Shown in pieces: positions 3,654 to 25,939 of a stretch of DNA of 64,000 nt. Numbering within the stretch: the stretch's first letter is position 1; each line of letters starts with the position of its first letter. Below the pieces are notes generated by a model that saw nothing but the letters and a program-made list of their open reading frames with translations, did not search any database and was not told where the DNA came from. The stretch comes from an uncultured Candidatus Saccharibacteria bacterium (lineage in GTDB: Bacteria > Patescibacteriota > Dojkabacteria > SC72), in assembly GCA_964655705.1 (NCBI GenBank), contig CAZZPP010000003.1, positions 37,427 to 101,426 on the forward strand, written 5' to 3'. Position numbers and translations under genes: made by a program.

Positions 3654-5174
3654 ATGATTGATACATCTAAATATGACATAATTATTGGCTTAGAGATACA
3701 TATACAGAGTAAAACAGACTCTAAAATGTTTTGCTCATGTCCAACCCATTACTTTGAAAAAGAGCCAAATACACATGTATGCCCCGTATGCTTAGGATTA
3801 CCAGGGGCATTACCTGTCCCAAACAGAAGAGCTATTGAATTGTGCATACTTCTGGGTTTAGCTACTAATTGTGATATTGATTCAGAGATTCACTTTGACA
3901 GGAAACATTACTTCTATCCCGATTTACCTAAAGGATATCAGATTAGTCAATACAAAAGACCCATATGCTCTGATGGATATATTGATATTAAGGATGAAGA
4001 TGGCAAAAAGTATACCATTGGGATTGAAAGAATTCACCAAGAAGAAGATGTAGCGAAATCAACACACCACAAAGAATCCTCTACTGGATTAGAGTACTCA
4101 CTAATTGATTACAACAAATCAGGAGTTCCTCTAATTGAAATTGTAAGTAAGCCAAATATTAGAAGTGCATATCAAGCTAGGGAGTATGCAAATAAAGTAA
4201 GACAGATTGTAAGATATCTAAATATCTCGGATGCTGACATGGAGAAAGGTCAAATGAGATGCGAACCAAACATCTCCATCCAAGAAAAAAGAAAGTGGGA
4301 ATACAAGGATGGAAAAATTCTACCTGTTGACAATTACATACTAAATTTAAAGTCCGAAATAAAAAATATTGGTTCAATATCTGCTGTTGAAAAATCAATC
4401 GACTATGAAGTTCAAAGAATGATTAAAGAATTAGAGACAGGTAAAACTTTAATACAACAAACAAGAGGATGGAATGCTGATAAAGGTATAACAGAATTCC
4501 AAAGATCTAAAGAAACTGCAGATGATTACAGATATATGCCTGATCCTGATATCCCCCTAATTAATATATCTGTAGAGGATATTGAAAAAATTAGTAAAGA
4601 GTTAGTAGAACTACCAAGTGAGAAAATAGAGAGATATCATCAAGAGTACGACCTTTCAGATTACGATTGTAATGTACTTACAGCTGATAGAGATATATCA
4701 AAATACTTCGAGGATGTTCTTAATCTTCTCTCAGAGGGTAATGATATTAAAAAGGTTGCTAAATCTGCTTCTAATTGGATTACAGGTGCAATCTTCTCAA
4801 TAGCCAATGATAGAAAGATAGATATTAACGAAGAGAATATTCCGAAGGCTGATTTGGTACACTTAATTAGGGTATTCGAAGAGAACAGATTAACAAGAAG
4901 TAAAGCTGAAGAGTTACTGAGAGAGTCTCTAGGAAATGACAAGCACCTAAATGAACTAATAGAGAATGCCTTAACAGAAAGCATAAAGAGTTCAAGTAAC
5001 TTAGGTGATATTGTAGATACAGTTATTTCTAACAATCCTAAAGCAATACAAGATTACAAATCAGGAAAACAAACTACTATTGGTTTTCTAATAGGGCAAG
5101 TAATGAAACAGACAAAAGGTACAGCAGATCCTAATGAGGCTAAATCAGTTTTAATAGAAAAATTAAATGGATAG
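3654..5174 (+). CDS. gatB: Asp-tRNA(Asn)/Glu-tRNA(Gln) amidotransferase subunit B
   Basis: IIGLEIHIQSKTDSKMFCSC..., a HQEEDVAKS-type core and the C-terminal YqeY-like tail QDYKSGKQTTIGFLIGQVMK are all present. Confidence 0.9.
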   Translation: MIDTSKYDIIIGLEIHIQSKTDSKMFCSCPTHYFEKEPNTHVCPVCLGLPGALPVPNRRAIELCILLGLATNCDIDSEIHFDRKHYFYPDLPKGYQISQYKRPICSDGYIDIKDEDGKKYTIGIERIHQEEDVAKSTHHKESSTGLEYSLIDYNKSGVPLIEIVSKPNIRSAYQAREYANKVRQIVRYLNISDADMEKGQMRCEPNISIQEKRKWEYKDGKILPVDNYILNLKSEIKNIGSISAVEKSIDYEVQRMIKELETGKTLIQQTRGWNADKGITEFQRSKETADDYRYMPDPDIPLINISVEDIEKISKELVELPSEKIERYHQEYDLSDYDCNVLTADRDISKYFEDVLNLLSEGNDIKKVAKSASNWITGAIFSIANDRKIDINEENIPKADLVHLIRVFEENRLTRSKAEELLRESLGNDKHLNELIENALTESIKSSSNLGDIVDTVISNNPKAIQDYKSGKQTTIGFLIGQVMKQTKGTADPNEAKSVLIEKLNG

Positions 5175-5463
5175 TAAAACTCTTAAACATATCTCAGAGC
5201 TTTCTAGAATATCTCTTACAGATAGGGAGTTAGAAGAGTTTACTCCTCAAATGGAAACCATATTAGATAGTGCTAAAAAATTACAAGAAGTAGATACAAC
5301 AAATGTTTCCCCTATGAAAAGACATCTACCCTTTAATTCTCTTAGAGAAGATACCCCAGGGGATAGCCTCTCTCAAGAGGAAGTACTGCGTAATGCTAAT
5401 CACAAAGAGAATGGTTATGTAAAGGTATATGGAAAGATATTCGGGAGTATTGAAGAAAGCTAA
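5167..5463 (+). CDS. gatC: Amidotransferase subunit C
   Basis: 98 aa: ISELSRISLTDRELEEFTPQMETILDSAKKLQEVDTTNVSPM matches GatC. It overlaps the gatB stop by 8 nt. Confidence 0.8.
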   Translation: MDSKTLKHISELSRISLTDRELEEFTPQMETILDSAKKLQEVDTTNVSPMKRHLPFNSLREDTPGDSLSQEEVLRNANHKENGYVKVYGKIFGSIEES

Positions 5464-5511
5464 TCTCTTTGTATAATAACATCTTTTTTAGTAAAATATA
5501 ATGTATTCTTA

Positions 5512-17518: not shown

Positions 17519-18283
17519 ATGGACATATTTAAAGTAGTAATATTAGGTATACAACAAGGTATTACAGAGTTACTCCCCATATCAAGTAGTGCACATCTTC
17601 TACTCACATCCCAGTTACTTGATATTGAGATGGACACATACCTACTTTCAATTCTTCATCTAGGTACAACATTGGCATTGATACTTTTCTACTTTCACTT
17701 CCTTTTTAAGGATATCTTTGGGAAGGAAAAAATATCCCTCTACCTTAAAATCTTTGCCTCCATACTACCTGTGGGAATAGTTGGATTACTTTTTGAGTCT
17801 ACAATTGAGTCCTCCCTTAGAGGAAACATAACAATCGCTATCTCCCTGATAGTATGGGGTATTGCTATGATATTAATTGAAAGAAGGAATGAGCCCAAGG
17901 AGATTGAATTTAAAGATATTACTTGGAAACAATCCCTTCTAATGGGTATTAGTCAGATATTTGCTCTCATCCCAGGAGGCTCTAGATCTGGAATCTCAAC
18001 ATTAATGGGTATGCTTACCGGGTTGAATAAATATACTGCCATCTCCTACTCTTTCTTAATGGGTATACCCATCCTTTTAGCAGTACCCATATTTGAAATA
18101 GTCAAAGAATATCCTCAGAGAGTATTAAATATGTATGATATTCTAGGAGTATTAGTTGCAGGGATATTCTCGTACTTAGGACTACTACTCTTAAAGAAAT
18201 TTAGTAAAAAGAATTGGCTAACTCTCTTTGGTATTTACAGAGTGGTATTAGGTATTGTAATTGTAGTAATTGAGATCTACTAA
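17519..18283 (+). CDS. uppP: Undecaprenyl-diphosphatase
   Basis: GIQQGITELLPISSSAHLLL is the BacA/UppP signature. There are 7-8 TM helices. Confidence 0.85.
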   Translation: MDIFKVVILGIQQGITELLPISSSAHLLLTSQLLDIEMDTYLLSILHLGTTLALILFYFHFLFKDIFGKEKISLYLKIFASILPVGIVGLLFESTIESSLRGNITIAISLIVWGIAMILIERRNEPKEIEFKDITWKQSLLMGISQIFALIPGGSRSGISTLMGMLTGLNKYTAISYSFLMGIPILLAVPIFEIVKEYPQRVLNMYDILGVLVAGIFSYLGLLLLKKFSKKNWLTLFGIYRVVLGIVIVVIEIY

Positions 18284-19932
18284 AATACATTCCTCAAATC
18301 AACCCCTGTCATACTATCTGGAATATCCATACCAACTAAACCTAAACATGTTGGAGATACATCAGCAAGCAAACCTGTGACCTGTGCATGTGCTCCAGTA
18401 CCTACCTTAACAAGATGAGTACCTGCCTTAGGGGTAATATCATTCATACTTGAAAGTATCATCAATGGTACAGGGTTATTAGTATGGGCAATATCTTTCT
18501 CTTTAGTCACCCTATTTATCATTGTCTCACAGTTACCATGGTCTGCAGTAATAATCATAGAACCTCCCATTGAAAGAGCAACTTTTGATATATCAGCAGT
18601 AAGAGAGTCCACTATCTCGTTTCCCCTAATAGTTGCTCCTAGATCGCCTGTATGACCCAACATATCAGGATTTGCAAAATTAATTACTACAAACTTGTAC
18701 TTGTATGTATCATATGCCTTAATTCTTTTTACAACCTCATCCCTAATAATTGATGAACTCATTTGAGGAATAGTAGCGTAATTTTCTACTCTAGGGGAAG
18801 GAATATTGAAAAAATCCTCACCCACATGGGGTTGTTCTACACCACCATTAAAGAAATATGTTACATGCATATTCTTTTCAGTCTCAGATATATGTAACTG
18901 ATTAAATCCTGAAGATGATATATACTCGGCCATTGGTTGCTTAATCTTTTTAGGAGGAAATATGACATGGGCATGAATACCCTCCTCGTAACCTGTCATT
19001 GTCACAAGATACAGGTTTTGAGGATAGTTTCTTCTAACAAAATGTTCAAACTCAGAAGATATGAAAGCCTTACTAATCTGTCTAGCACGATCCTCCCTAA
19101 AGTTCCAAAACAGTAATATGTCGTTGGGCTTAACAGGACCTATGGGGTTACCAGAACTATCTACCCTCATCATCGGTTTAACAAATTCATCAGTCTCGTT
19201 TTTCGCATATGCCTTTTGTAATGCTACAGTAGGATCTAGAAAACCCTCAGGAGCCAAACCAACCATTGCATCGTATGCAAGTTTAATTCTCTCCCACCTG
19301 TTATCCCTGTCCATACCAAAGAATCTTCCTTGCATTGAAGCTATGACTCCCACTCCACTCTCTCTAATCTTTTCGTTTAATTTGTTTAGATACAAAAAAC
19401 CGTCTTTAGCAGGAGTATCTCTACCATCAAACATAATATGAATATATGGGTTAACACCATTGGCCTTGCAGATATCCATTAATGAGAAAAGATGCTTAAT
19501 ATGTCCATGAACACCTGCAGCACTTAATACTCCAGCTAGATGGAAGTTAGAGCCCCTCTTTTTAACCTCAGCAAAAGCATCCCTCATAGTTAGGTTACTA
19601 TCTAACTCATGAGTAGATATTGCATCATTAATCATAGGTAAAGATTGGTATACAACCTGACCCGCGCCTAAATTTAAATGTCCTACTTCAGAGTTACCAG
19701 CCTCTTCTGATGGTAGGCCTACATACGTTCCAGAGGCATTAATTAAGGTTGATCTCCCATATGTCCAGGCAGTATCCAGAAATGGGGTCTTAGCTCCCAA
19801 TACTGCATTTCCTTCAGAATCGGGATGTATTCCAAATCCATCAAGTATTAAGAGTACTACAAACTTACTAGCTTGGACATTTTCTGTTGTAACAACCTCT
19901 TTTGGATTCTTCTTTTCAAATAGACCAAACAT
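18280..19932 (-). CDS. gpmI: 2,3-bisphosphoglycerate-independent phosphoglycerate mutase
   Basis: VVLLILDGFGI...GNAV...TP.LD at the N-terminus and metal-binding blocks DHGN and GHTGD are present. Length is 550 aa. Confidence 0.9.
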   Translation of the reverse strand: MFGLFEKKNPKEVVTTENVQASKFVVLLILDGFGIHPDSEGNAVLGAKTPFLDTAWTYGRSTLINASGTYVGLPSEEAGNSEVGHLNLGAGQVVYQSLPMINDAISTHELDSNLTMRDAFAEVKKRGSNFHLAGVLSAAGVHGHIKHLFSLMDICKANGVNPYIHIMFDGRDTPAKDGFLYLNKLNEKIRESGVGVIASMQGRFFGMDRDNRWERIKLAYDAMVGLAPEGFLDPTVALQKAYAKNETDEFVKPMMRVDSSGNPIGPVKPNDILLFWNFREDRARQISKAFISSEFEHFVRRNYPQNLYLVTMTGYEEGIHAHVIFPPKKIKQPMAEYISSSGFNQLHISETEKNMHVTYFFNGGVEQPHVGEDFFNIPSPRVENYATIPQMSSSIIRDEVVKRIKAYDTYKYKFVVINFANPDMLGHTGDLGATIRGNEIVDSLTADISKVALSMGGSMIITADHGNCETMINRVTKEKDIAHTNNPVPLMILSSMNDITPKAGTHLVKVGTGAHAQVTGLLADVSPTCLGLVGMDIPDSMTGVDLRNVF

Positions 19933-19973: not shown

Positions 19974-21056
19974 ATGGAAGAGATTAGTAAAAAAGATATT
20001 CAAAAATTATATGAGAAAGTATTAGATATTGAGAAATCTCTAGGTATTGACTCTAAAAGAGAGGTACTTAAAATACTCGAGCAGGAAAGTTCAGGCAAAG
20101 AGTTTTGGAACAACCAGAAGCATGCCCAAGAGGTAATGATACAGATTTCAGATATTACCCAAGAAATACAAAAGATTGAAAAAATAAAGGAAGACATCCA
20201 TTCACTCCAATCGCTACTCGAAGGCAATCAACACAACAATGATGAATATCTCAAGGAGAATATGAATGAGATATTGAGGGAACTCTCTACATTTGAATCT
20301 CTAAAATTCCTCTCAGGAAAATATGACGGTTGCAATGCTCAACTGTCTATTCACGCTGGACAAGGAGGTACAGAGGCTCAAGACTGGGCAGAGATGTTAC
20401 TGAGAATGTATACCATGTATATCGAGAAGAAGGGTTGGAAATACAATATCACGAATATTTTACAAGGCTCAGAGGTAGGTATCTCAACTGTTACACTAGA
20501 TATTACTGGGAAATATGTATACGGATTGTTAAAAAGAGAACATGGTACTCATCGTCTAGTTAGGCTCTCTCCATTCAATTCTCAAAATCTTCGCCAAACA
20601 TCATTTGCTGGAGTAGAGGTAATACCCATATTGGAAGAGTTAGGAAATGAGATATCTGTTTCAGAGGAGGATATTGAATTCAAAGCAACTAAGTCTGGGG
20701 GCCCTGGGGGACAGAACGTAAACAAGACCTCAACTGCTGTACAAATTACTCATTTACCTACAGGGATCGTAGTAAATTGTTCTCAGGAAAGAAGTCAATT
20801 ACAAAACAGAGAGAAAGCCATGCAAATACTAAAAGCTAAACTATGGAGAATATTAGAAGAAAACCGATTAAAAGAAATATCCGAAATTAAAGGTGACTAC
20901 AAGGTGGCAGGATGGGGAAATCAAATTAGGAATTACATATTACACCCGTACAAACTTGTAAAAGACTTGAGAACTAATGTAGAAAGTAGTAACCCTGAAA
21001 GCATACTAGATGGTAATATTGATGAATTTCTTGAAGCCCAGTTAAGAATACAGTAA
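19974..21056 (+). CDS. prfB: Peptide chain release factor 2, with no programmed frameshift
   Basis: An SPF tripeptide (RLSPFNSQ) and GGQ (SGGPGGQNVNKTSTAV) are both present. The ORF is contiguous from the ATG. There is no in-frame UGA near codon 25. Confidence 0.85.
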   Translation: MEEISKKDIQKLYEKVLDIEKSLGIDSKREVLKILEQESSGKEFWNNQKHAQEVMIQISDITQEIQKIEKIKEDIHSLQSLLEGNQHNNDEYLKENMNEILRELSTFESLKFLSGKYDGCNAQLSIHAGQGGTEAQDWAEMLLRMYTMYIEKKGWKYNITNILQGSEVGISTVTLDITGKYVYGLLKREHGTHRLVRLSPFNSQNLRQTSFAGVEVIPILEELGNEISVSEEDIEFKATKSGGPGGQNVNKTSTAVQITHLPTGIVVNCSQERSQLQNREKAMQILKAKLWRILEENRLKEISEIKGDYKVAGWGNQIRNYILHPYKLVKDLRTNVESSNPESILDGNIDEFLEAQLRIQ

Positions 21057-21090: not shown

Positions 21091-22020
21091 ATGATAATAT
21101 TTGATACAGTAACAAAGAAATACAAAGAGGATATTACTGCACTCCAAGATGTTTCTTTCAGGATAGATCCTGGAGAGTTCTGCTTTGTAATTGGACCCTC
21201 TGGTGCTGGTAAATCCACAATTATGAAATTACTCATTAGAGAGGAAGTACCTACTTCTGGTAGTATTTTCTTTAATGATATTGAGGTCCCTAAGTTAAAT
21301 AGAAGACTTCTTCCAGCATATAGGCAGAAATTAGGAGTTGTATTTCAAGATATTAAATTACTTACAGGTAAAACCTTAGAAGAAAATATTGCTTTTGCAT
21401 TAGAGATATTAGACAAAAGTAATAAAGAGATAAAGGATACCACTGACTATCTACTAGATTTAGTAGGATTAAGGGATAGAAGAACACTCTTTCCTGAGGA
21501 ACTATCAGGAGGAGAACAGCAAAGAGGTGCAATTGCTAGAGCACTTGCAAATAAACCAGATTTCTTCATAGCAGATGAACCCACAGGGAATCTTGATTCA
21601 GAGAATGCATTACAGATTTTGGAGATTCTTAAAACAATAAATAAGAGTGGTACTACCGTTATGGTCATATCACACGACTTAAATCTAATTAGTAAAACAA
21701 GTGACAGAACAATTAATCTTAAGGATGGAAAATTAAACTCTGATTCCAAACCGAAAGATATTCCTAAGCAGGATATTAAAGAAGAAGAGAAGAAGGTTGA
21801 AGTTAAAAAGGAGGATATTAAAGAGGTTAAATTGTCTTCTGATTTTGATTCCCTAACAAAATCGCTAAAAGAAAAATTAATACAATACGCTATTAAAACT
21901 CCTGATGTCTTACTCAATATTACTACCCAGGAGTTAAAAAATATGAAATTAAGTAAGAAAGAGAACAAGGAGTTAGCCACCTTTGTTAAAAAATATTTAA
22001 GTAAAAAGAACAATGAATAG
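21091..22020 (+). CDS. ftsE: Cell division ATP-binding protein FtsE with a roughly 85 aa Lys/Glu-rich C-terminal extension
   Basis: Walker A GPSGAGKST, the ABC signature LSGGEQQR and Walker B FFIADEPTGNLD are present. After about aa 225 a low-complexity tail follows. Confidence 0.85.
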   Translation: MIIFDTVTKKYKEDITALQDVSFRIDPGEFCFVIGPSGAGKSTIMKLLIREEVPTSGSIFFNDIEVPKLNRRLLPAYRQKLGVVFQDIKLLTGKTLEENIAFALEILDKSNKEIKDTTDYLLDLVGLRDRRTLFPEELSGGEQQRGAIARALANKPDFFIADEPTGNLDSENALQILEILKTINKSGTTVMVISHDLNLISKTSDRTINLKDGKLNSDSKPKDIPKQDIKEEEKKVEVKKEDIKEVKLSSDFDSLTKSLKEKLIQYAIKTPDVLLNITTQELKNMKLSKKENKELATFVKKYLSKKNNE

Positions 22021-22939
22021 TACAAGAGTATTTTCAGTAACAAGTAAAAATATTAAGAGGAATAAATGGTTAACAATATCCACAATATTAGTTTCAGCCA
22101 TTGTATTTACTCTTACATCAGTATTTGTATCAATATCAATATTGATATCCAAAACAGTTGATTACTATGAACAAAGAGCACAGGTAATTGTATTTTTTAA
22201 AAAAGGTACTTCCCAAGAGGAAATATTTAGATTTAAAGATATCATTAATGACCCTGAGGTAGTAGAAGAAATAATATATATATCCCAGGAACAAGCGTTA
22301 GAGGTTTACAAAGAGGATTTTGCAGATAATCCGGAATTAATATCTACCATTACTGCAGATTCCCTACCCCCTAGTTTAGAACTTAGAGCAAAGAGTATTG
22401 ATGGTCTTTTAGGTGTCATTGATAATATTAATAAGTTAAAAGAAACAAATCCTAATGTAGATGAGGTTATGTATTTTAAAGATGTTGTTAACAATATTAG
22501 AACACTCTCTAGAATCATTAATATTGGAGGTACAGCATTAATATCTGCAATGATTTTAGTTACAATTGCATTAATTCGAGTTACTATTGGGTTCAACATT
22601 AAACTCCATCAAGAAGAAATAGAGATTATGCATCTTGTTGGAAGTTCAGATAAGTTCATAAGAACCCCCTTCATATTAGAAGGTACATTCTACGGCTTAA
22701 CAGGTGGTTTTCTAGCAGCTCTAATTGTACTGCTACCTTGGTATTCAGCAAATATATACTCTACTGGTACAGAGTTTGCTACATGGATTACAGAGATGTT
22801 TAAAGATATTAATCTTTCCTTTGTCTTGAGACCAAACTTTACATTCATACTTGTATTTTTACTCATTCATATGATTGTTGGATCAGTAATTGGGTTCTTC
22901 AGTAGTTTAAGTTCAGTTAAAAAGTATTTAAGAGAGTAA
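22013..22939 (+). CDS. ftsX: Cell division permease FtsX
   Basis: Topology is an N-terminal TM, a large periplasmic loop and three C-terminal TMs. It overlaps the ftsE stop. The arrangement is the classic ftsEX pair. Confidence 0.75.
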   Translation: MNSTRVFSVTSKNIKRNKWLTISTILVSAIVFTLTSVFVSISILISKTVDYYEQRAQVIVFFKKGTSQEEIFRFKDIINDPEVVEEIIYISQEQALEVYKEDFADNPELISTITADSLPPSLELRAKSIDGLLGVIDNINKLKETNPNVDEVMYFKDVVNNIRTLSRIINIGGTALISAMILVTIALIRVTIGFNIKLHQEEIEIMHLVGSSDKFIRTPFILEGTFYGLTGGFLAALIVLLPWYSANIYSTGTEFATWITEMFKDINLSFVLRPNFTFILVFLLIHMIVGSVIGFFSSLSSVKKYLRE

Positions 22940-22941
22940 GC

Positions 22942-24267
22942 ATGAAAAGAGATATCAAGATACTATTTACAATATTATTTACTTTTATTTCACTCCTAAC
23001 ATTTTCTAGGGTAGTATCTTCTGCTGAAAAGTGTCCTGATACTATGCCCCCACAGGAGAGATATGTATGTTTACAAAGTGAATTGACCAAACTTGAGAGT
23101 ACTCAAGGCTCTTTACAAAAGAAACTTAAAAATGAAGATTACCAACAGCTATCACTAAATGAAAAATTACAATATATTACTACTCAAATTGAACAAACTG
23201 AAAAGGTCATCGAAGTCCTAGGATTTGAAATAACTGCTCAAGATATTGAAATATTACTACTTTCAGAAGAGATCTCTCTTAAGGAGGATGATATTAGCAT
23301 ATTAAACCAAGAGATAAAGGTTTTGGAAAGAACAGTAAATGAGAGAGTTACACAGTCTTACAAGTTCTCGTATGTTGGTCCTTTTGAGTTGTTTTTAGAT
23401 TTTAAGAATCTAGATAATGTAATTAGGAAGGTTAAATATCTTCTGGAGGCTAGAAATAATGATAAGGACTCATTAGCAAACTATTCAAACAAAAAGGATC
23501 TTCTTGTACAAGAAGAACAAATACTTGCTGTACAGAAAGCAGATCTACAAAAGAAAAGAAATGAGATTGAGTTAGAAAAAGATAGATTAGTGGAAGAGAG
23601 GATATATTTAGACCAACAGAAAGCAGAAAAGAATATTCTATTGGCTGAATCTAAAAGAAGAGAAGAGGAGTATAGGAGGGAATTAGCAGAAACTACTGCA
23701 ATGATTTCTGATATGGATGAGAAAATCTCTGACCTAGTTATTGCACTCTTTAATTCTGGAGGTCTTGGGAATGGAACTAAGGTTGCTGCTGGTATTCCCA
23801 TTGGATATCAGGGACATACTGGTTGTTCATTCGGTTCACACCTACATTTTGAGATTAGGGATAAAAACAATGTAAAACAAGATCCCTCAATATATTTAAA
23901 TGGAGGAACATACTGGTCATTAGTATCATCAAAGATATATCAAGCACCTCTTAGGGGAGCAAGAATAACCCAGGTATACAAGACATGGTCTCATAGGGCA
24001 TGGGATATGGTTAGTCTCTCTGAAGGTATCCAAAATGGTTCTACATACACAGTCCCTACTGGTATATGTACCAATGTAGACAACTATATTAAGAGTACAG
24101 GAAGAAACTGGGCATATCTAACCGGTGAGGGTGCAACTGTTAGGTCCATCACAAGTGGAACAATATATTATGGACTTTATTCTACTAACCTACCCCAATA
24201 TCCTTGTAAATACGCATTACTAGTCCATGATGATGGTAATAAATCCTTCTATTTACACCTTAAATAA
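22942..24267 (+). CDS. EnvC-like coiled-coil protein with an M23/LytM peptidase domain whose motifs appear in permuted order
   Basis: A signal peptide is followed by about 230 aa of coiled coil. GIPIGYQGHTGCSFGSHLHFEIRD (the HxH block) comes next, then SHRAWDMV (an HxxxD block), then GATVRSITSGTIYYGL...YALLVHDDGNKSFYLHL (the Y.HL block) at the extreme C-terminus. Confidence 0.6.
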   Translation: MKRDIKILFTILFTFISLLTFSRVVSSAEKCPDTMPPQERYVCLQSELTKLESTQGSLQKKLKNEDYQQLSLNEKLQYITTQIEQTEKVIEVLGFEITAQDIEILLLSEEISLKEDDISILNQEIKVLERTVNERVTQSYKFSYVGPFELFLDFKNLDNVIRKVKYLLEARNNDKDSLANYSNKKDLLVQEEQILAVQKADLQKKRNEIELEKDRLVEERIYLDQQKAEKNILLAESKRREEEYRRELAETTAMISDMDEKISDLVIALFNSGGLGNGTKVAAGIPIGYQGHTGCSFGSHLHFEIRDKNNVKQDPSIYLNGGTYWSLVSSKIYQAPLRGARITQVYKTWSHRAWDMVSLSEGIQNGSTYTVPTGICTNVDNYIKSTGRNWAYLTGEGATVRSITSGTIYYGLYSTNLPQYPCKYALLVHDDGNKSFYLHLK

Positions 24268-24349: not shown

Positions 24350-25177
24350 ATGGCAAAAGTAAAAGTTAAAAAGAAGAGTAAATCCTCTAAAGCCCCAAAG
24401 AAAACCATTACAATAAAAAAACCAAATATCAAACTTGGTAAGCCTAATTTTAAAAAGGTAATTTCCAGCGATGGCTTTAGAACCTTCTTAATAGTATTGG
24501 GTAGTATTGTAATATTCATCTTAATAGATCTTCTTGTTCAGTATTTAAATAATGGATACAGCATTGCTGTAGTAGATGGTAAAAGGATATCTAAAACAGA
24601 GTATCACAAAAGATTGGAAGCATCGTACGGCTCTACTATTGCTCAACAGTTAATTGATGAGCAATTAATTAAAATTGAAGCTCAGAAGGCTGATGTTGAT
24701 GTCACTAAGGAAGAGATAGATGAGCAACTAAATGAAATTATTGAGAGTGTGGGAGGACAGGAATCATATCTTCAGGCCTTGGAGCAGAATAATATTACTG
24801 AGGAAGATTTAAAATCTCAGATTGAGTTAGATATTCTTTCCAGAAAGATTCTAACCCCTACCTTGGAATATACTGAGGATGATGTAAAAGCATTCTTTGA
24901 ACAGTATAGCGCTGTACTATTCCCAACAGAAACAGCAGAGTTAGAAGAGGGTGAAAAATTAGACTATGAACTATTTAAGGAAGAGTCTGAGAAGAGATAT
25001 GTTGAGCAAGAGGTTTACAATAGTGAGGCTACATGGTTAGAAGGACTAAAGACAGAGTACAAGATTCAGGATAACTCATCTATTAAACCTACATATGGTG
25101 TATTAAAAGCAACAATAAATATCTTTAAAAACTATTTTGATAATGCAAATAGTAATGAGATAGAGGTAGAAGAGTAA
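24350..25177 (+). CDS. Membrane-anchored SurA-N/PrsA-like chaperone-domain protein with no obvious PPIase domain
   Basis: A lysine-rich N-terminus, one TM helix, then a helical region (ISKTEYHKRLEASYGSTIAQQLIDEQLIKIEAQK) resembling the SurA N-terminal or trigger-factor-like chaperone domain. Confidence 0.35.
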   Translation: MAKVKVKKKSKSSKAPKKTITIKKPNIKLGKPNFKKVISSDGFRTFLIVLGSIVIFILIDLLVQYLNNGYSIAVVDGKRISKTEYHKRLEASYGSTIAQQLIDEQLIKIEAQKADVDVTKEEIDEQLNEIIESVGGQESYLQALEQNNITEEDLKSQIELDILSRKILTPTLEYTEDDVKAFFEQYSAVLFPTETAELEEGEKLDYELFKEESEKRYVEQEVYNSEATWLEGLKTEYKIQDNSSIKPTYGVLKATINIFKNYFDNANSNEIEVEE

Positions 25178-25195
25178 TCATATATCTACGATTAT

Positions 25196-25228
25196 TAAAA
25201 AGGGGGAGAATCAATTCCCCCTTTTTTC
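25196..25228. terminator. Bidirectional intrinsic terminator between convergent genes
   Basis: TAAAAA GGGGGAG AATCAAT TCCCCC TTTTTTC: a GC stem flanked by an A-run and a T-run. Confidence 0.55.
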
Positions 25229-25230
25229 TT

Positions 25231-25827
25231 CTATACCCCAGAGTCAGAGGGCTCTACCAAACCGTAACCTCCTTTAAATCTTCTGTAAAGCATTGATATC
25301 TTACCAGTACTTTTGTTCCGAAAAAGGAATTGGTCATATCCCAGCAGTTCCATTTTCTCAATAGCCTCCCCTTCTTCTAGGGGAGTCATATCATCAATTC
25401 TTTTTCTAGTCGCAATAGTCGGGGTATAGTCAGAATACTGATCATTGGGCGATTGATTCTCAACACTCTCTAAATGGGCATCCGCTTCAAGGACCTTCCA
25501 TGGAGTAACTCCTTCCCAATACTCCTTCCTTCCTTGATATCTTTTTAATCTCCTAGCTAGGGTATCTGTTGCAGTATCAATAATAGCATACATATTCTCT
25601 CCATTTTCCTCTACTCTAACAATACTTCTAGGTAATTTAACATTAATATCTACTCTAAAATCATCTTTTACCCCCCTACGAGTAACATACTCCTTTAAAA
25701 CAACCTCTATACCTGTAGCCTCACTCCATAGATGTTCATACTTATCTACCTTCTCTACAATGTAATTCTTTAAAGCCTGTGTAGGCTTCATACCTACAAA
25801 AGTAATCTGTATATCTTCTATGGTCAT
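25231..25827 (-). CDS. hpf: Ribosome hibernation promoting factor, long form
   Basis: MTIEDIQITFVGMKPTQALKNYIVEKV... is the RaiA/HPF N-domain. The C-terminal dimerisation domain reads GYDQFLFRNKSTGKISMLYRRFKGGYGLVEP. The ORF track begins 30 nt upstream at 25857. The Met at 25827 matches the family start. Confidence 0.75.
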   Translation of the reverse strand: MTIEDIQITFVGMKPTQALKNYIVEKVDKYEHLWSEATGIEVVLKEYVTRRGVKDDFRVDINVKLPRSIVRVEENGENMYAIIDTATDTLARRLKRYQGRKEYWEGVTPWKVLEADAHLESVENQSPNDQYSDYTPTIATRKRIDDMTPLEEGEAIEKMELLGYDQFLFRNKSTGKISMLYRRFKGGYGLVEPSDSGV

Positions 25828-25939
25828 CTTAAAGATATATAAATTTATATATACCAATATTCTACATTAAAAACATACAAATCTAAATCTTTACATTTAA
25901 AACCATTAAGTATACAATAGCCCCATAACATTATCTATT

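Follow-up and report, generated by a model that had tools for sequence, protein, structure and literature searches.

A circularly permuted M23/LytM domain in a coiled-coil protein encoded directly after ftsE and ftsX in Dojkabacteria

Introduction

Peptidases of the M23/LytM type, lysostaphin and LytM among them, belong to the best-studied peptidoglycan hydrolases and attract interest as enzybiotics, and the complexes of FtsEX with hydrolases are a current focus of research on bacterial cell division. In EnvC, the LytM domain is collinear, no longer has the metal ligands and serves to activate the amidases AmiA and AmiB, and the catalytic domains of PcsB, RipC and CwlO are CHAP or NlpC/P60 cysteine peptidases. 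Here, we describe a coiled-coil protein of 441 amino acids (aa), a probable FtsEX partner of the EnvC/PcsB type, that carries a circularly permuted M23 domain. It is encoded at positions 22942–24267 of the forward strand of a 64,000-nucleotide (nt) stretch of contig CAZZPP010000003.1 (hereafter the window, with a GC content of about 34%), which was deposited as DNA of an uncultured Candidatus Saccharibacteria bacterium.

Two motifs define the M23 family: H(x)nD, in which n varies, and HxH. Zinc is bound by both residues of the first motif, His and Asp, and by the second His of HxH; the other His of HxH sits at the catalytic water, together with a further His located some 30 residues upstream of that motif, His260 in LytM (PMC9662197). 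We consider it probable that the protein described here is an extracytoplasmic partner of FtsEX with a coiled coil of the EnvC/PcsB type and a genuine, circularly permuted M23 domain, and that it most likely acts as an FtsEX-gated peptidoglycan endopeptidase.

Results

Order of the M23 Halves

The half of the domain with the pattern GxxVxxGxxIGxxGxTGxxxGSHLHFE (aa 272–320) comes first and the half with the pattern PxxxxITQxY...HxxxD...GEGAxV...YxHL (aa 336–441) comes last, so that the protein ends two residues past the catalytic His of YxHL. The block GYQGHTGCSFGSHLHFEIRD occupies aa 288–307, and the C-terminus reads ...GATVRSITSGTIYYGL...YALLVHDDGNKSFYLHLK-stop, also ...GEGATVRSITSGTIYYGL...YALLVHDDGNKSFYLHLK. 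A preliminary description of the window, made from the letters alone, had proposed this permuted order and placed SHRAWDMV at aa 350–357, which is exact, and GYQGHTGCSFGSHLHFEIRD at aa 289–309, which is one to two residues off; it had also proposed a profile search to see whether two partial Peptidase_M23 matches would appear in swapped order, and this is what was found.

The Pfam Peptidase_M23 model (PF01551, MEROPS M23B) matches the protein above the family threshold, with 42.4 bits against a gathering score of 28.7, and the match is split into two stretches. The best stretch aligns aa 275–315 with positions 57–96 of the 96 positions of the profile, that is, with the C-terminal end of the model, and the last 111 residues taken alone match profile positions 10–53. 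In the sequence alignment with zoocin A (5kvp), residues 366–440 of the query correspond to residues 12–90 of the chain and residues 280–309 to residues 100–129, which is again the swapped order. When aa 331–441 were placed in silico before aa 271–322, restoring the canonical order, the rejoined sequence gave one collinear Pfam match over profile positions 10–96 with 56.3 bits, the native order reaching 45.4 bits split over two pieces.

The same result was obtained at the family level, where hhalign was used to set 42 C-terminal domains against 60 canonical M23 domains. In the native order, only 44 columns aligned (template positions 85–128, E = 7.5e-20), corresponding to the C-terminal half, and the tail alone, corresponding to the N-terminal half, gave 43 columns (template positions 39–81, E = 1.6e-15). 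The rejoined domain aligned over 89 columns locally (E = 2e-34) and over 117 columns globally, spanning template positions 1–128 with one gap, where 36 residues are inserted past the H(x)3D strand. Since each block is significant alone and rejoining them yields exactly one M23 domain, the halves are permuted. A mistaken assignment of the motifs in a normal, collinear M23 domain was considered and is ruled out by the Pfam coordinates, the alignments with PDB sequences and hhalign, all of which show two swapped blocks.

A profile of the permuted domain was also compared with the PDB, and 44 of the 44 M23-type chains matched it only as separate half-domain pieces, none of them collinearly; on this basis, no solved structure has the permuted order. 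The collinear topology of the family, with the N-terminal half (H(x)nD...YxHL) followed by the C-terminal half (HxH), is absent here, and the domain, which by homology and likely function has the M23 fold, departs from the topology and the motif positions with which the family is modelled.

Active-Site Residues and Their Conservation

Orthologues were sought in one genome per species; about 55 genomes gave full-length matches, from which 53 open reading frames (ORFs), mostly of Dojkabacteria, were extracted, with identities reaching down to 24–25%. Four His residues, given here with the roles assigned to them by comparison with the family, are present in all 53: H300, the first His of HxH, which is catalytic; H302, the second, which is a zinc ligand; H439 of YxHL, which is catalytic; and H429, which is structural. 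The zinc ligand D355 is found in 51. The remaining zinc ligand, H351, which together with D355 forms the canonically spaced H(x)3D motif (aa 351–355, positions 23992–24006), is the least conserved of the five active-site residues and is found in 32 of the 53 orthologues. Sixteen others have a His two residues upstream instead (HxGxxxD, or H(x)5D, as in FHEGYALDM), five have a His at neither position, and none has both. The two alternative positions were noted from the query and orthologues L035–L052 and L056. To judge from these sequences, the first-ligand His looks to have been relocated along the strand more than lost, which would agree with the variable n of the family motif.

Both motifs that define the family are present in the query, as H351-R-A-W-D355 and H300-L-H302. 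The catalytic His expected about 30 residues before HxH is not found there; it is kept as H439, but 137 residues after HxH. The degenerate state typical of EnvC, a LytM domain devoid of metal ligands, is not seen, the ligands and the catalytic His residues all being conserved.

Layout and Predicted Structure of the Domain

All parts of the domain are encoded on the forward strand. The C-terminal M23 half, placed first, comprises aa 272–320 (positions 23755–23901; GNGTKVAAGIPIGYQGHTGCSFGSHLHFEIRD...DPSIYL) and includes the HxH motif H300/H302; it is the part that aligns with Pfam positions 57–96 and template positions 85–128. It is followed by a junction of about 20 residues (aa 321–339, positions 23902–23958), in which the old C-terminus is joined to the old N-terminus, leading from the canonical C-terminal ..DPSIYL to the canonical N-terminal ..APL.GA.ITQ.Y; this segment aligns with the inter-domain junction of tandem M23-M23 proteins. 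The start of the N-terminal half (aa 340–358, positions 23959–24015; ARITQVY346KTWSH351RAWD355MVS) aligns in the global hhalign comparison with P..ITs.fG...H.GiD, and in that comparison aa 333 onward begins at template position 1. Tyr346 is the putative oxyanion Tyr.

The insertion that forms the single gap of the global alignment is lineage-specific and about 36 residues long (aa 359–394, positions 24016–24123). It contains a helix (aa 377–386, positions 107–116 of the domain) predicted by AlphaFold2 (AF2) as well as Cys376, separates the H(x)3D strand from the GEGAxV strand in the Dojkabacteria proteins, and is present neither in canonical M23 domains nor in the compact permuted relatives described below. 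Cys376 is conserved in 52 of the 53 orthologues, and Cys295, which lies just before HxH (HTGCS), in 42; possibly, a disulfide links the two, or the substrate groove owes its shape to the insertion. What remains of the N-terminal half, placed last (aa 395–441, positions 24124–24264; GEGATVRSITSGTIYYG...YALLVH429DDGNKSFYLH439LK), corresponds to Pfam positions 10–53, template positions 39–81 and residues 12–90 of zoocin A. The new N-terminus of the domain is thus the strand that canonically follows YxHL (..GNGTKVAAGIPIGYQGHTG..) and the new C-terminus is YLHLK, which means that the chain was opened in the loop just past the catalytic H439.

The AF2 model of aa 271–441, built on an alignment of 52 sequences, is one compact domain with a predicted local distance difference test score (pLDDT) of 95.4 and a predicted template modelling score (pTM) of 0.90. 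A Foldseek search of this model against the PDB returned no significant match and no M23 structure. With a circular permutant, an order-preserving aligner is expected to fit one half well and to leave the other out, and the miss probably reflects the permutation; it has no bearing on function. A structural match of the protein to EnvC (4bh5) was also seen.

Distribution of the Permuted Order

In all 53 orthologues HxH comes first and YxHL last, and nearly all of the proteins end one to three residues past YxHL; the preliminary description had pointed to orthologues in related genomes as a check on the order, and they uniformly share it. The closest relatives come from metagenome-assembled genomes labelled Candidatus Dojkabacteria (WS6), of the candidate phyla radiation (CPR). 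An exhaustive HMMER search with aa 262–441 returned 340 cluster representatives (clustering at 50% identity), and the permuted order was found in 58 of the best 150 of them. The permutation is a clade-wide feature and not peculiar to one gene.

It should be noted that many close genomes (L003, L005, L007 and others, up to 82% identity), binchicken/SRP co-assemblies, are deposited as uncultured Candidatus Saccharibacteria, that equally close genomes are labelled Dojkabacteria, and that the Saccharibacteria label on such records looks unreliable.

A second, compact group of permuted proteins (365–405 aa, without the insertion) was found in other small genomes, with the motifs ...GPHLHFEVR..NP..Y....WP....ITQ.FG......H.G.D....G.P..A...G.......GYG.......G....YGHL-end. 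Four of them (P0135, P0301, P0277 and P0311) are encoded directly after ftsX, with ftsE also visible in three cases, and one lies on a 0.93-Mb contig. A gene for a CtpB-like S41 peptidase follows the compact relatives directly in loci L083 and L087 and after one gene in L088. The names of the members point to Woesebacteria, Microgenomates and WWE3.

The permuted domain also occurs in short secreted proteins of 150–210 aa, which consist of a signal peptide and the permuted M23 domain, without a coiled coil and with no ftsEX nearby (P0154–P0156, P0162, P0166, P0169 and P0170; loci L084 and L085, gene at 5001–5465). Examples are the NCBI entry 'Peptidase M23 [Candidatus Woesebacteria bacterium GW2011_GWA1_39_8]' and proteins of Microgenomates OLB23 and of WWE3, and P0156, from a genome named Woesebacteria by NCBI, is encoded near Fic, Vsr and DNA-methylase genes. 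These proteins indicate that the permuted domain has been reused outside the FtsEX context.

The canonical order was also met among the matches. The coiled-coil M23 protein of P0319 (Nealsonbacteria) and the large cluster P0346 have HLHFE and H.G.D intact and match Pfam profile positions 2–96 in one stretch, and in Jeotgalibacillus (L081, L082) and a metagenome-assembled genome of Clostridia (L071), canonical M23 genes, recognised by the HLH block, follow ftsEX at a distance of 1–2.5 kb.

A close relative is annotated as 'hypothetical protein' by NCBI, and a compact relative as 'septal ring factor EnvC (AmiA/AmiB activator)' by JGI. In NCBIfam, no specific family and no EnvC model match was found, only weak, partial matches to MepM, ShyA and PcsB. 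The swapped order explains this poor annotation, the Pfam match being weak and split and the fold being missed by Foldseek.

N-Terminus and Coiled Coil

The protein begins with a hydrophobic helix (aa 2–20, positions 22945–23001, forward strand, in the AF2 model), which is a signal peptide or a membrane anchor. According to the AF2 secondary structure, it is followed by an antiparallel coiled-coil hairpin (positions 23050–23754, forward strand) of two long helices, aa 37–143 and 157–271, with a short turn helix at aa 147–153; the hairpin is presumed to be the FtsX-binding module. The full-length AF2 model, based on an alignment of 33 sequences, has a pLDDT of 84, and everything from aa 279 onward belongs to a beta-rich domain.

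Foldseek matched the full-length model to EnvC as solved in FtsEX-EnvC complexes (8tzl_E and 6tpi_A), RipC in the FtsEX-RipC complex (8idc_E), the N-terminal domain of RipA (6ewy) and PcsB (4cgk), with weak E-values of 4e-3 to 4e-2, and these matches are essentially driven by the coiled coil. The CC_PcsB model appears among the precomputed Pfam matches on the coiled coil of several permuted relatives. By the AF2 model and these weak Foldseek matches, the protein has the make-up typical of EnvC: it is secreted or anchored, and a long antiparallel coiled coil precedes its LytM domain.

Just past the N-terminal helix lies Cys31 (positions 23032–23034); 48 orthologues cover this site, and 47 of them have the Cys. 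A CP....(C/Y) motif is conserved at the start of the coiled coil, position 43 (positions 23068–23070) being Cys in 22 and Tyr in 23 sequences.

Gene Neighbourhood

The preliminary description had placed the gene in the ftsE-ftsX-envC position, and the neighbouring genes confirm it. On the forward strand, prfB (19974–21056) lies upstream of ftsE (21091–22020), which encodes an ABC ATPase of 309 aa (Pfam ABC_tran, E = 5e-33, aa 18–165). The ftsX gene (22013–22939), for a permease with an extracellular domain (Pfam FtsX_ECD, E = 1.9e-13; FtsX, E = 6e-10), overlaps ftsE by 8 nt, and the 441-aa ORF begins 2 nt past ftsX. Downstream, also on the forward strand, lies a SurA_N-like gene (24350–25177; Pfam SurA_N_3, E = 3.6e-10) for a protein of 275 aa with an N-terminal membrane anchor. 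The order prfB-ftsE-ftsX-gene-surA_N-like is conserved in about 45 loci, the SurA_N-like gene adjoins the hydrolase gene on its 3' side in most Dojkabacteria loci, and the order ftsE-ftsX-gene is also kept in a WWE3 genome whose protein is 25% identical.

A terminator scan of the gap between the 441-aa ORF and the SurA_N-like gene found no terminator-like site there, and a terminator-like hairpin with a 12-bp stem lies 3' of the SurA_N-like gene (25197–25226); the two genes probably form one transcription unit. The chaperone-like SurA_N-like gene shares this strong hairpin and may belong functionally to the ftsEX-hydrolase unit.

FtsE has a Lys/Glu-rich C-terminal extension of about 85 residues (aa 226–309, positions 21766–22017), to which Pfam gave no match. 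In the Dojkabacteria loci, about 250–300 nt separate the conserved ATPase core of FtsE from ftsX, which suggests that the extension is general in Dojkabacteria; the FtsE proteins encoded beside the compact permuted relatives are 226–227 aa long and lack it.

Both genes that flank the region on the opposite strand appear unremarkable. One, at 25231–25857, encodes a long-form ribosome hibernation factor (Pfam Ribosomal_S30AE and S30AE_C on the identical gene in L001), and the other, a 550-aa ORF at 18280–19932, encodes a putative cofactor-independent phosphoglycerate mutase, to judge from its sequence.

Discussion

Proposed Function

Retention of all five active-site residues makes it most likely that the domain is an active endopeptidase. 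The preliminary description had stated that the metal ligands were retained and had suggested that this could be an active permuted LytM domain rather than a degenerate one of the EnvC type; H351, D355 and H302 are indeed present, together with the catalytic H300 and H439, which supports that suggestion.

In the mechanism that we propose, the coiled-coil hairpin would dock on the extracellular domains of FtsX, and the M23 domain would bind zinc via H351, D355 and H302 and, where the cell divides, cut the cross-links or the stem peptides of the peptidoglycan. By analogy with PcsB, RipC and CwlO, and unlike the catalytically dead amidase activator EnvC of E. coli, the hydrolase would be switched on by ATP hydrolysis in FtsE. 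The coiled coil leads into the domain through its helix 2, about 8 residues ahead of the strand adjoining the catalytic YxHL strand, and as a result of the swapped order the regulatory lever is attached beside the active site and not at the distal canonical N-terminus. It is conceivable, if on balance doubtful, that the permutation is adaptive rather than neutral, with the movement of the coiled coil opening and closing the active site directly. If true, this would be a form of mechanotransduction unlike the restraining arm of EnvC or the domain occlusion of PcsB and RipC, and a clade-defining trait of Dojkabacteria, Microgenomates, WWE3 and their relatives.

Origin of the Permutation

Circular permutants usually arise by a tandem duplication and subsequent truncation at both ends. 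The matches include natural proteins with two M23 domains in tandem, and the permuted profile aligns with them in three pieces: the N-terminal half, a full collinear match across the junction, and the C-terminal half. The match across the junction covers positions 7–135 of the 136 positions of the profile with 68–91 bits. In compact permutants, about 53 aa lie between HxH and H.G.D and about 54 aa between H.G.D and YxHL, and the spacing across the tandem junctions is the same. These tandem proteins show the feasibility of the route only and are not ancestors of the permuted proteins.

Most plausibly, the permutation arose by tandem duplication of an M23 domain and loss of the outer halves. All permuted relatives found share one cut point, which argues for a single origin in an ancestor of several CPR lineages. 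The canonical-order M23 proteins with a coiled coil or a link to ftsEX likely represent the ancestral state.

Alternative Explanations

Several findings weigh against the reading of the protein as an active, FtsEX-gated endopeptidase that arose in this way. Structurally, the coiled coil matches EnvC, PcsB and RipC weakly (E-values of 1e-3 to 4e-2), and the query itself falls below the Pfam CC_PcsB model in the Pfam scan. H351 has the canonical spacing in only 32 of the 53 orthologues, and some members might be degenerate. The tandem M23-M23 proteins are unrelated architectures (BlaR1/M56 and CHAP/lysozyme fusions) and not FtsEX partners, and an intermediate with a coiled coil and two M23 domains was not seen among the tandem matches.

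According to the strongest alternative, the LytM domain is permuted but non-catalytic, and the protein is an FtsEX-controlled activator or scaffold for another hydrolase, for example an Amidase_3 enzyme, like E. coli EnvC, NlpD and DipM. Degenerate LytM factors such as EnvC have lost metal-ligand or catalytic residues, whereas H300, H302 and H439 are invariant and D355 nearly so across the 53 species studied here. Moreover, of the 21 members without H351, 16 carry the substitute His two residues upstream, which looks like retained function. We regard a non-catalytic role as unlikely.

The two blocks could instead be decayed leftovers of two M23 copies that do not make up one functional domain. 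An eroding tandem repeat would also give a permuted profile that matches a tandem junction, and Foldseek finds no M23 structure for the model; however, AF2 predicts one compact domain with the high pLDDT and pTM scores given above, and the halves supply exactly one complete set of M23 elements over template positions 1–128, none of them duplicated or missing. The boundaries and the five catalytic residues are, in addition, conserved in orthologues down to the lowest identities sampled, which implies purifying selection on an intact site and makes decay very improbable.

An artefact of sequencing, assembly or gene calling, such as a frameshift, a chimeric join or a mis-ordered contig in 23790–24267, is practically ruled out, as the identical 441-aa protein was called on three contigs, two of which come from independent assemblies of separate sequencing runs (SRR8925802 and SRR27197505), the frame 22942–24267 is open throughout, without interruption, and the same order and the same stop position recur in 53 genomes from many studies.

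Comparison with Known Systems

We found no description of a permuted M23/LytM domain in the full-text literature, including a 2022 review of the M23 family (PMC9662197), PMC6403190, PMC11515920 and PMC12419801, a coverage that leaves subscription journals aside. A precedent for such a rearrangement in another class of enzymes is given by the circularly permuted NlpC/P60 families (YaeF/poxvirus G6R, LRAT-like; Anantharaman and Aravind 2003, cited in PMC6403190). In these families, the order of the catalytic residues is swapped and the fold kept; they have a papain-like Cys-His site in a different fold without homology to the present domain, which has the zinc site of M23. Another precedent is provided by permuted barrel-sandwich (HABAS) domains.

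As a natural and conserved permutant, the domain shows that the M23 fold tolerates termini beside the active site, which is useful for engineering and for folding studies, and it offers a natural experiment on how the link from coiled coil to hydrolase transmits regulation by FtsEX. The permuted M23 domain may also mark a group of CPR lineages.

In comparison with canonical M23B/LytM-type peptidases (LytM, 2b0p/4zyb; lysostaphin, 4lxc; zoocin A, 5kvp; StM23, 9gy1; ShyA, 6ue4; PF01551), the half with HxH comes first here and last there, and the third catalytic His, which in those enzymes precedes HxH by about 30 residues, follows it here at a distance of about 137. The new termini are located in a loop beside the active site, and 36 residues, among them a helix and a conserved Cys, have been inserted after the H(x)3D strand.

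The protein resembles EnvC of E. coli and V. cholerae (6tpi, 8tzl, 4bh5) in the position of its gene after ftsE-ftsX, the signal sequence, the long antiparallel coiled coil and the C-terminal domain with its presumed LytM fold, and differs from it in that the domain is permuted, the ligands are retained and the coiled coil joins the fold at another point. With PcsB of S. pneumoniae (4cgk), RipC of M. tuberculosis (8idc) and CwlO of B. subtilis, it would share the combination of a coiled coil with a catalytically competent C-terminal hydrolase and the gating by an ATPase that we propose by analogy, but its presumed catalytic domain is of the M23 metallopeptidase type. The proteins of P0319 and P0346 come close as well, having a coiled coil followed by an intact M23 domain, as here, but in collinear order; as coiled-coil M23 proteins of canonical order exist, the novelty lies in the permutation and not in the activity. 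Taken together, these comparisons describe a structural rearrangement that is solid and clade-wide, and both the enzyme that it affects and the system to which the protein belongs are well known.

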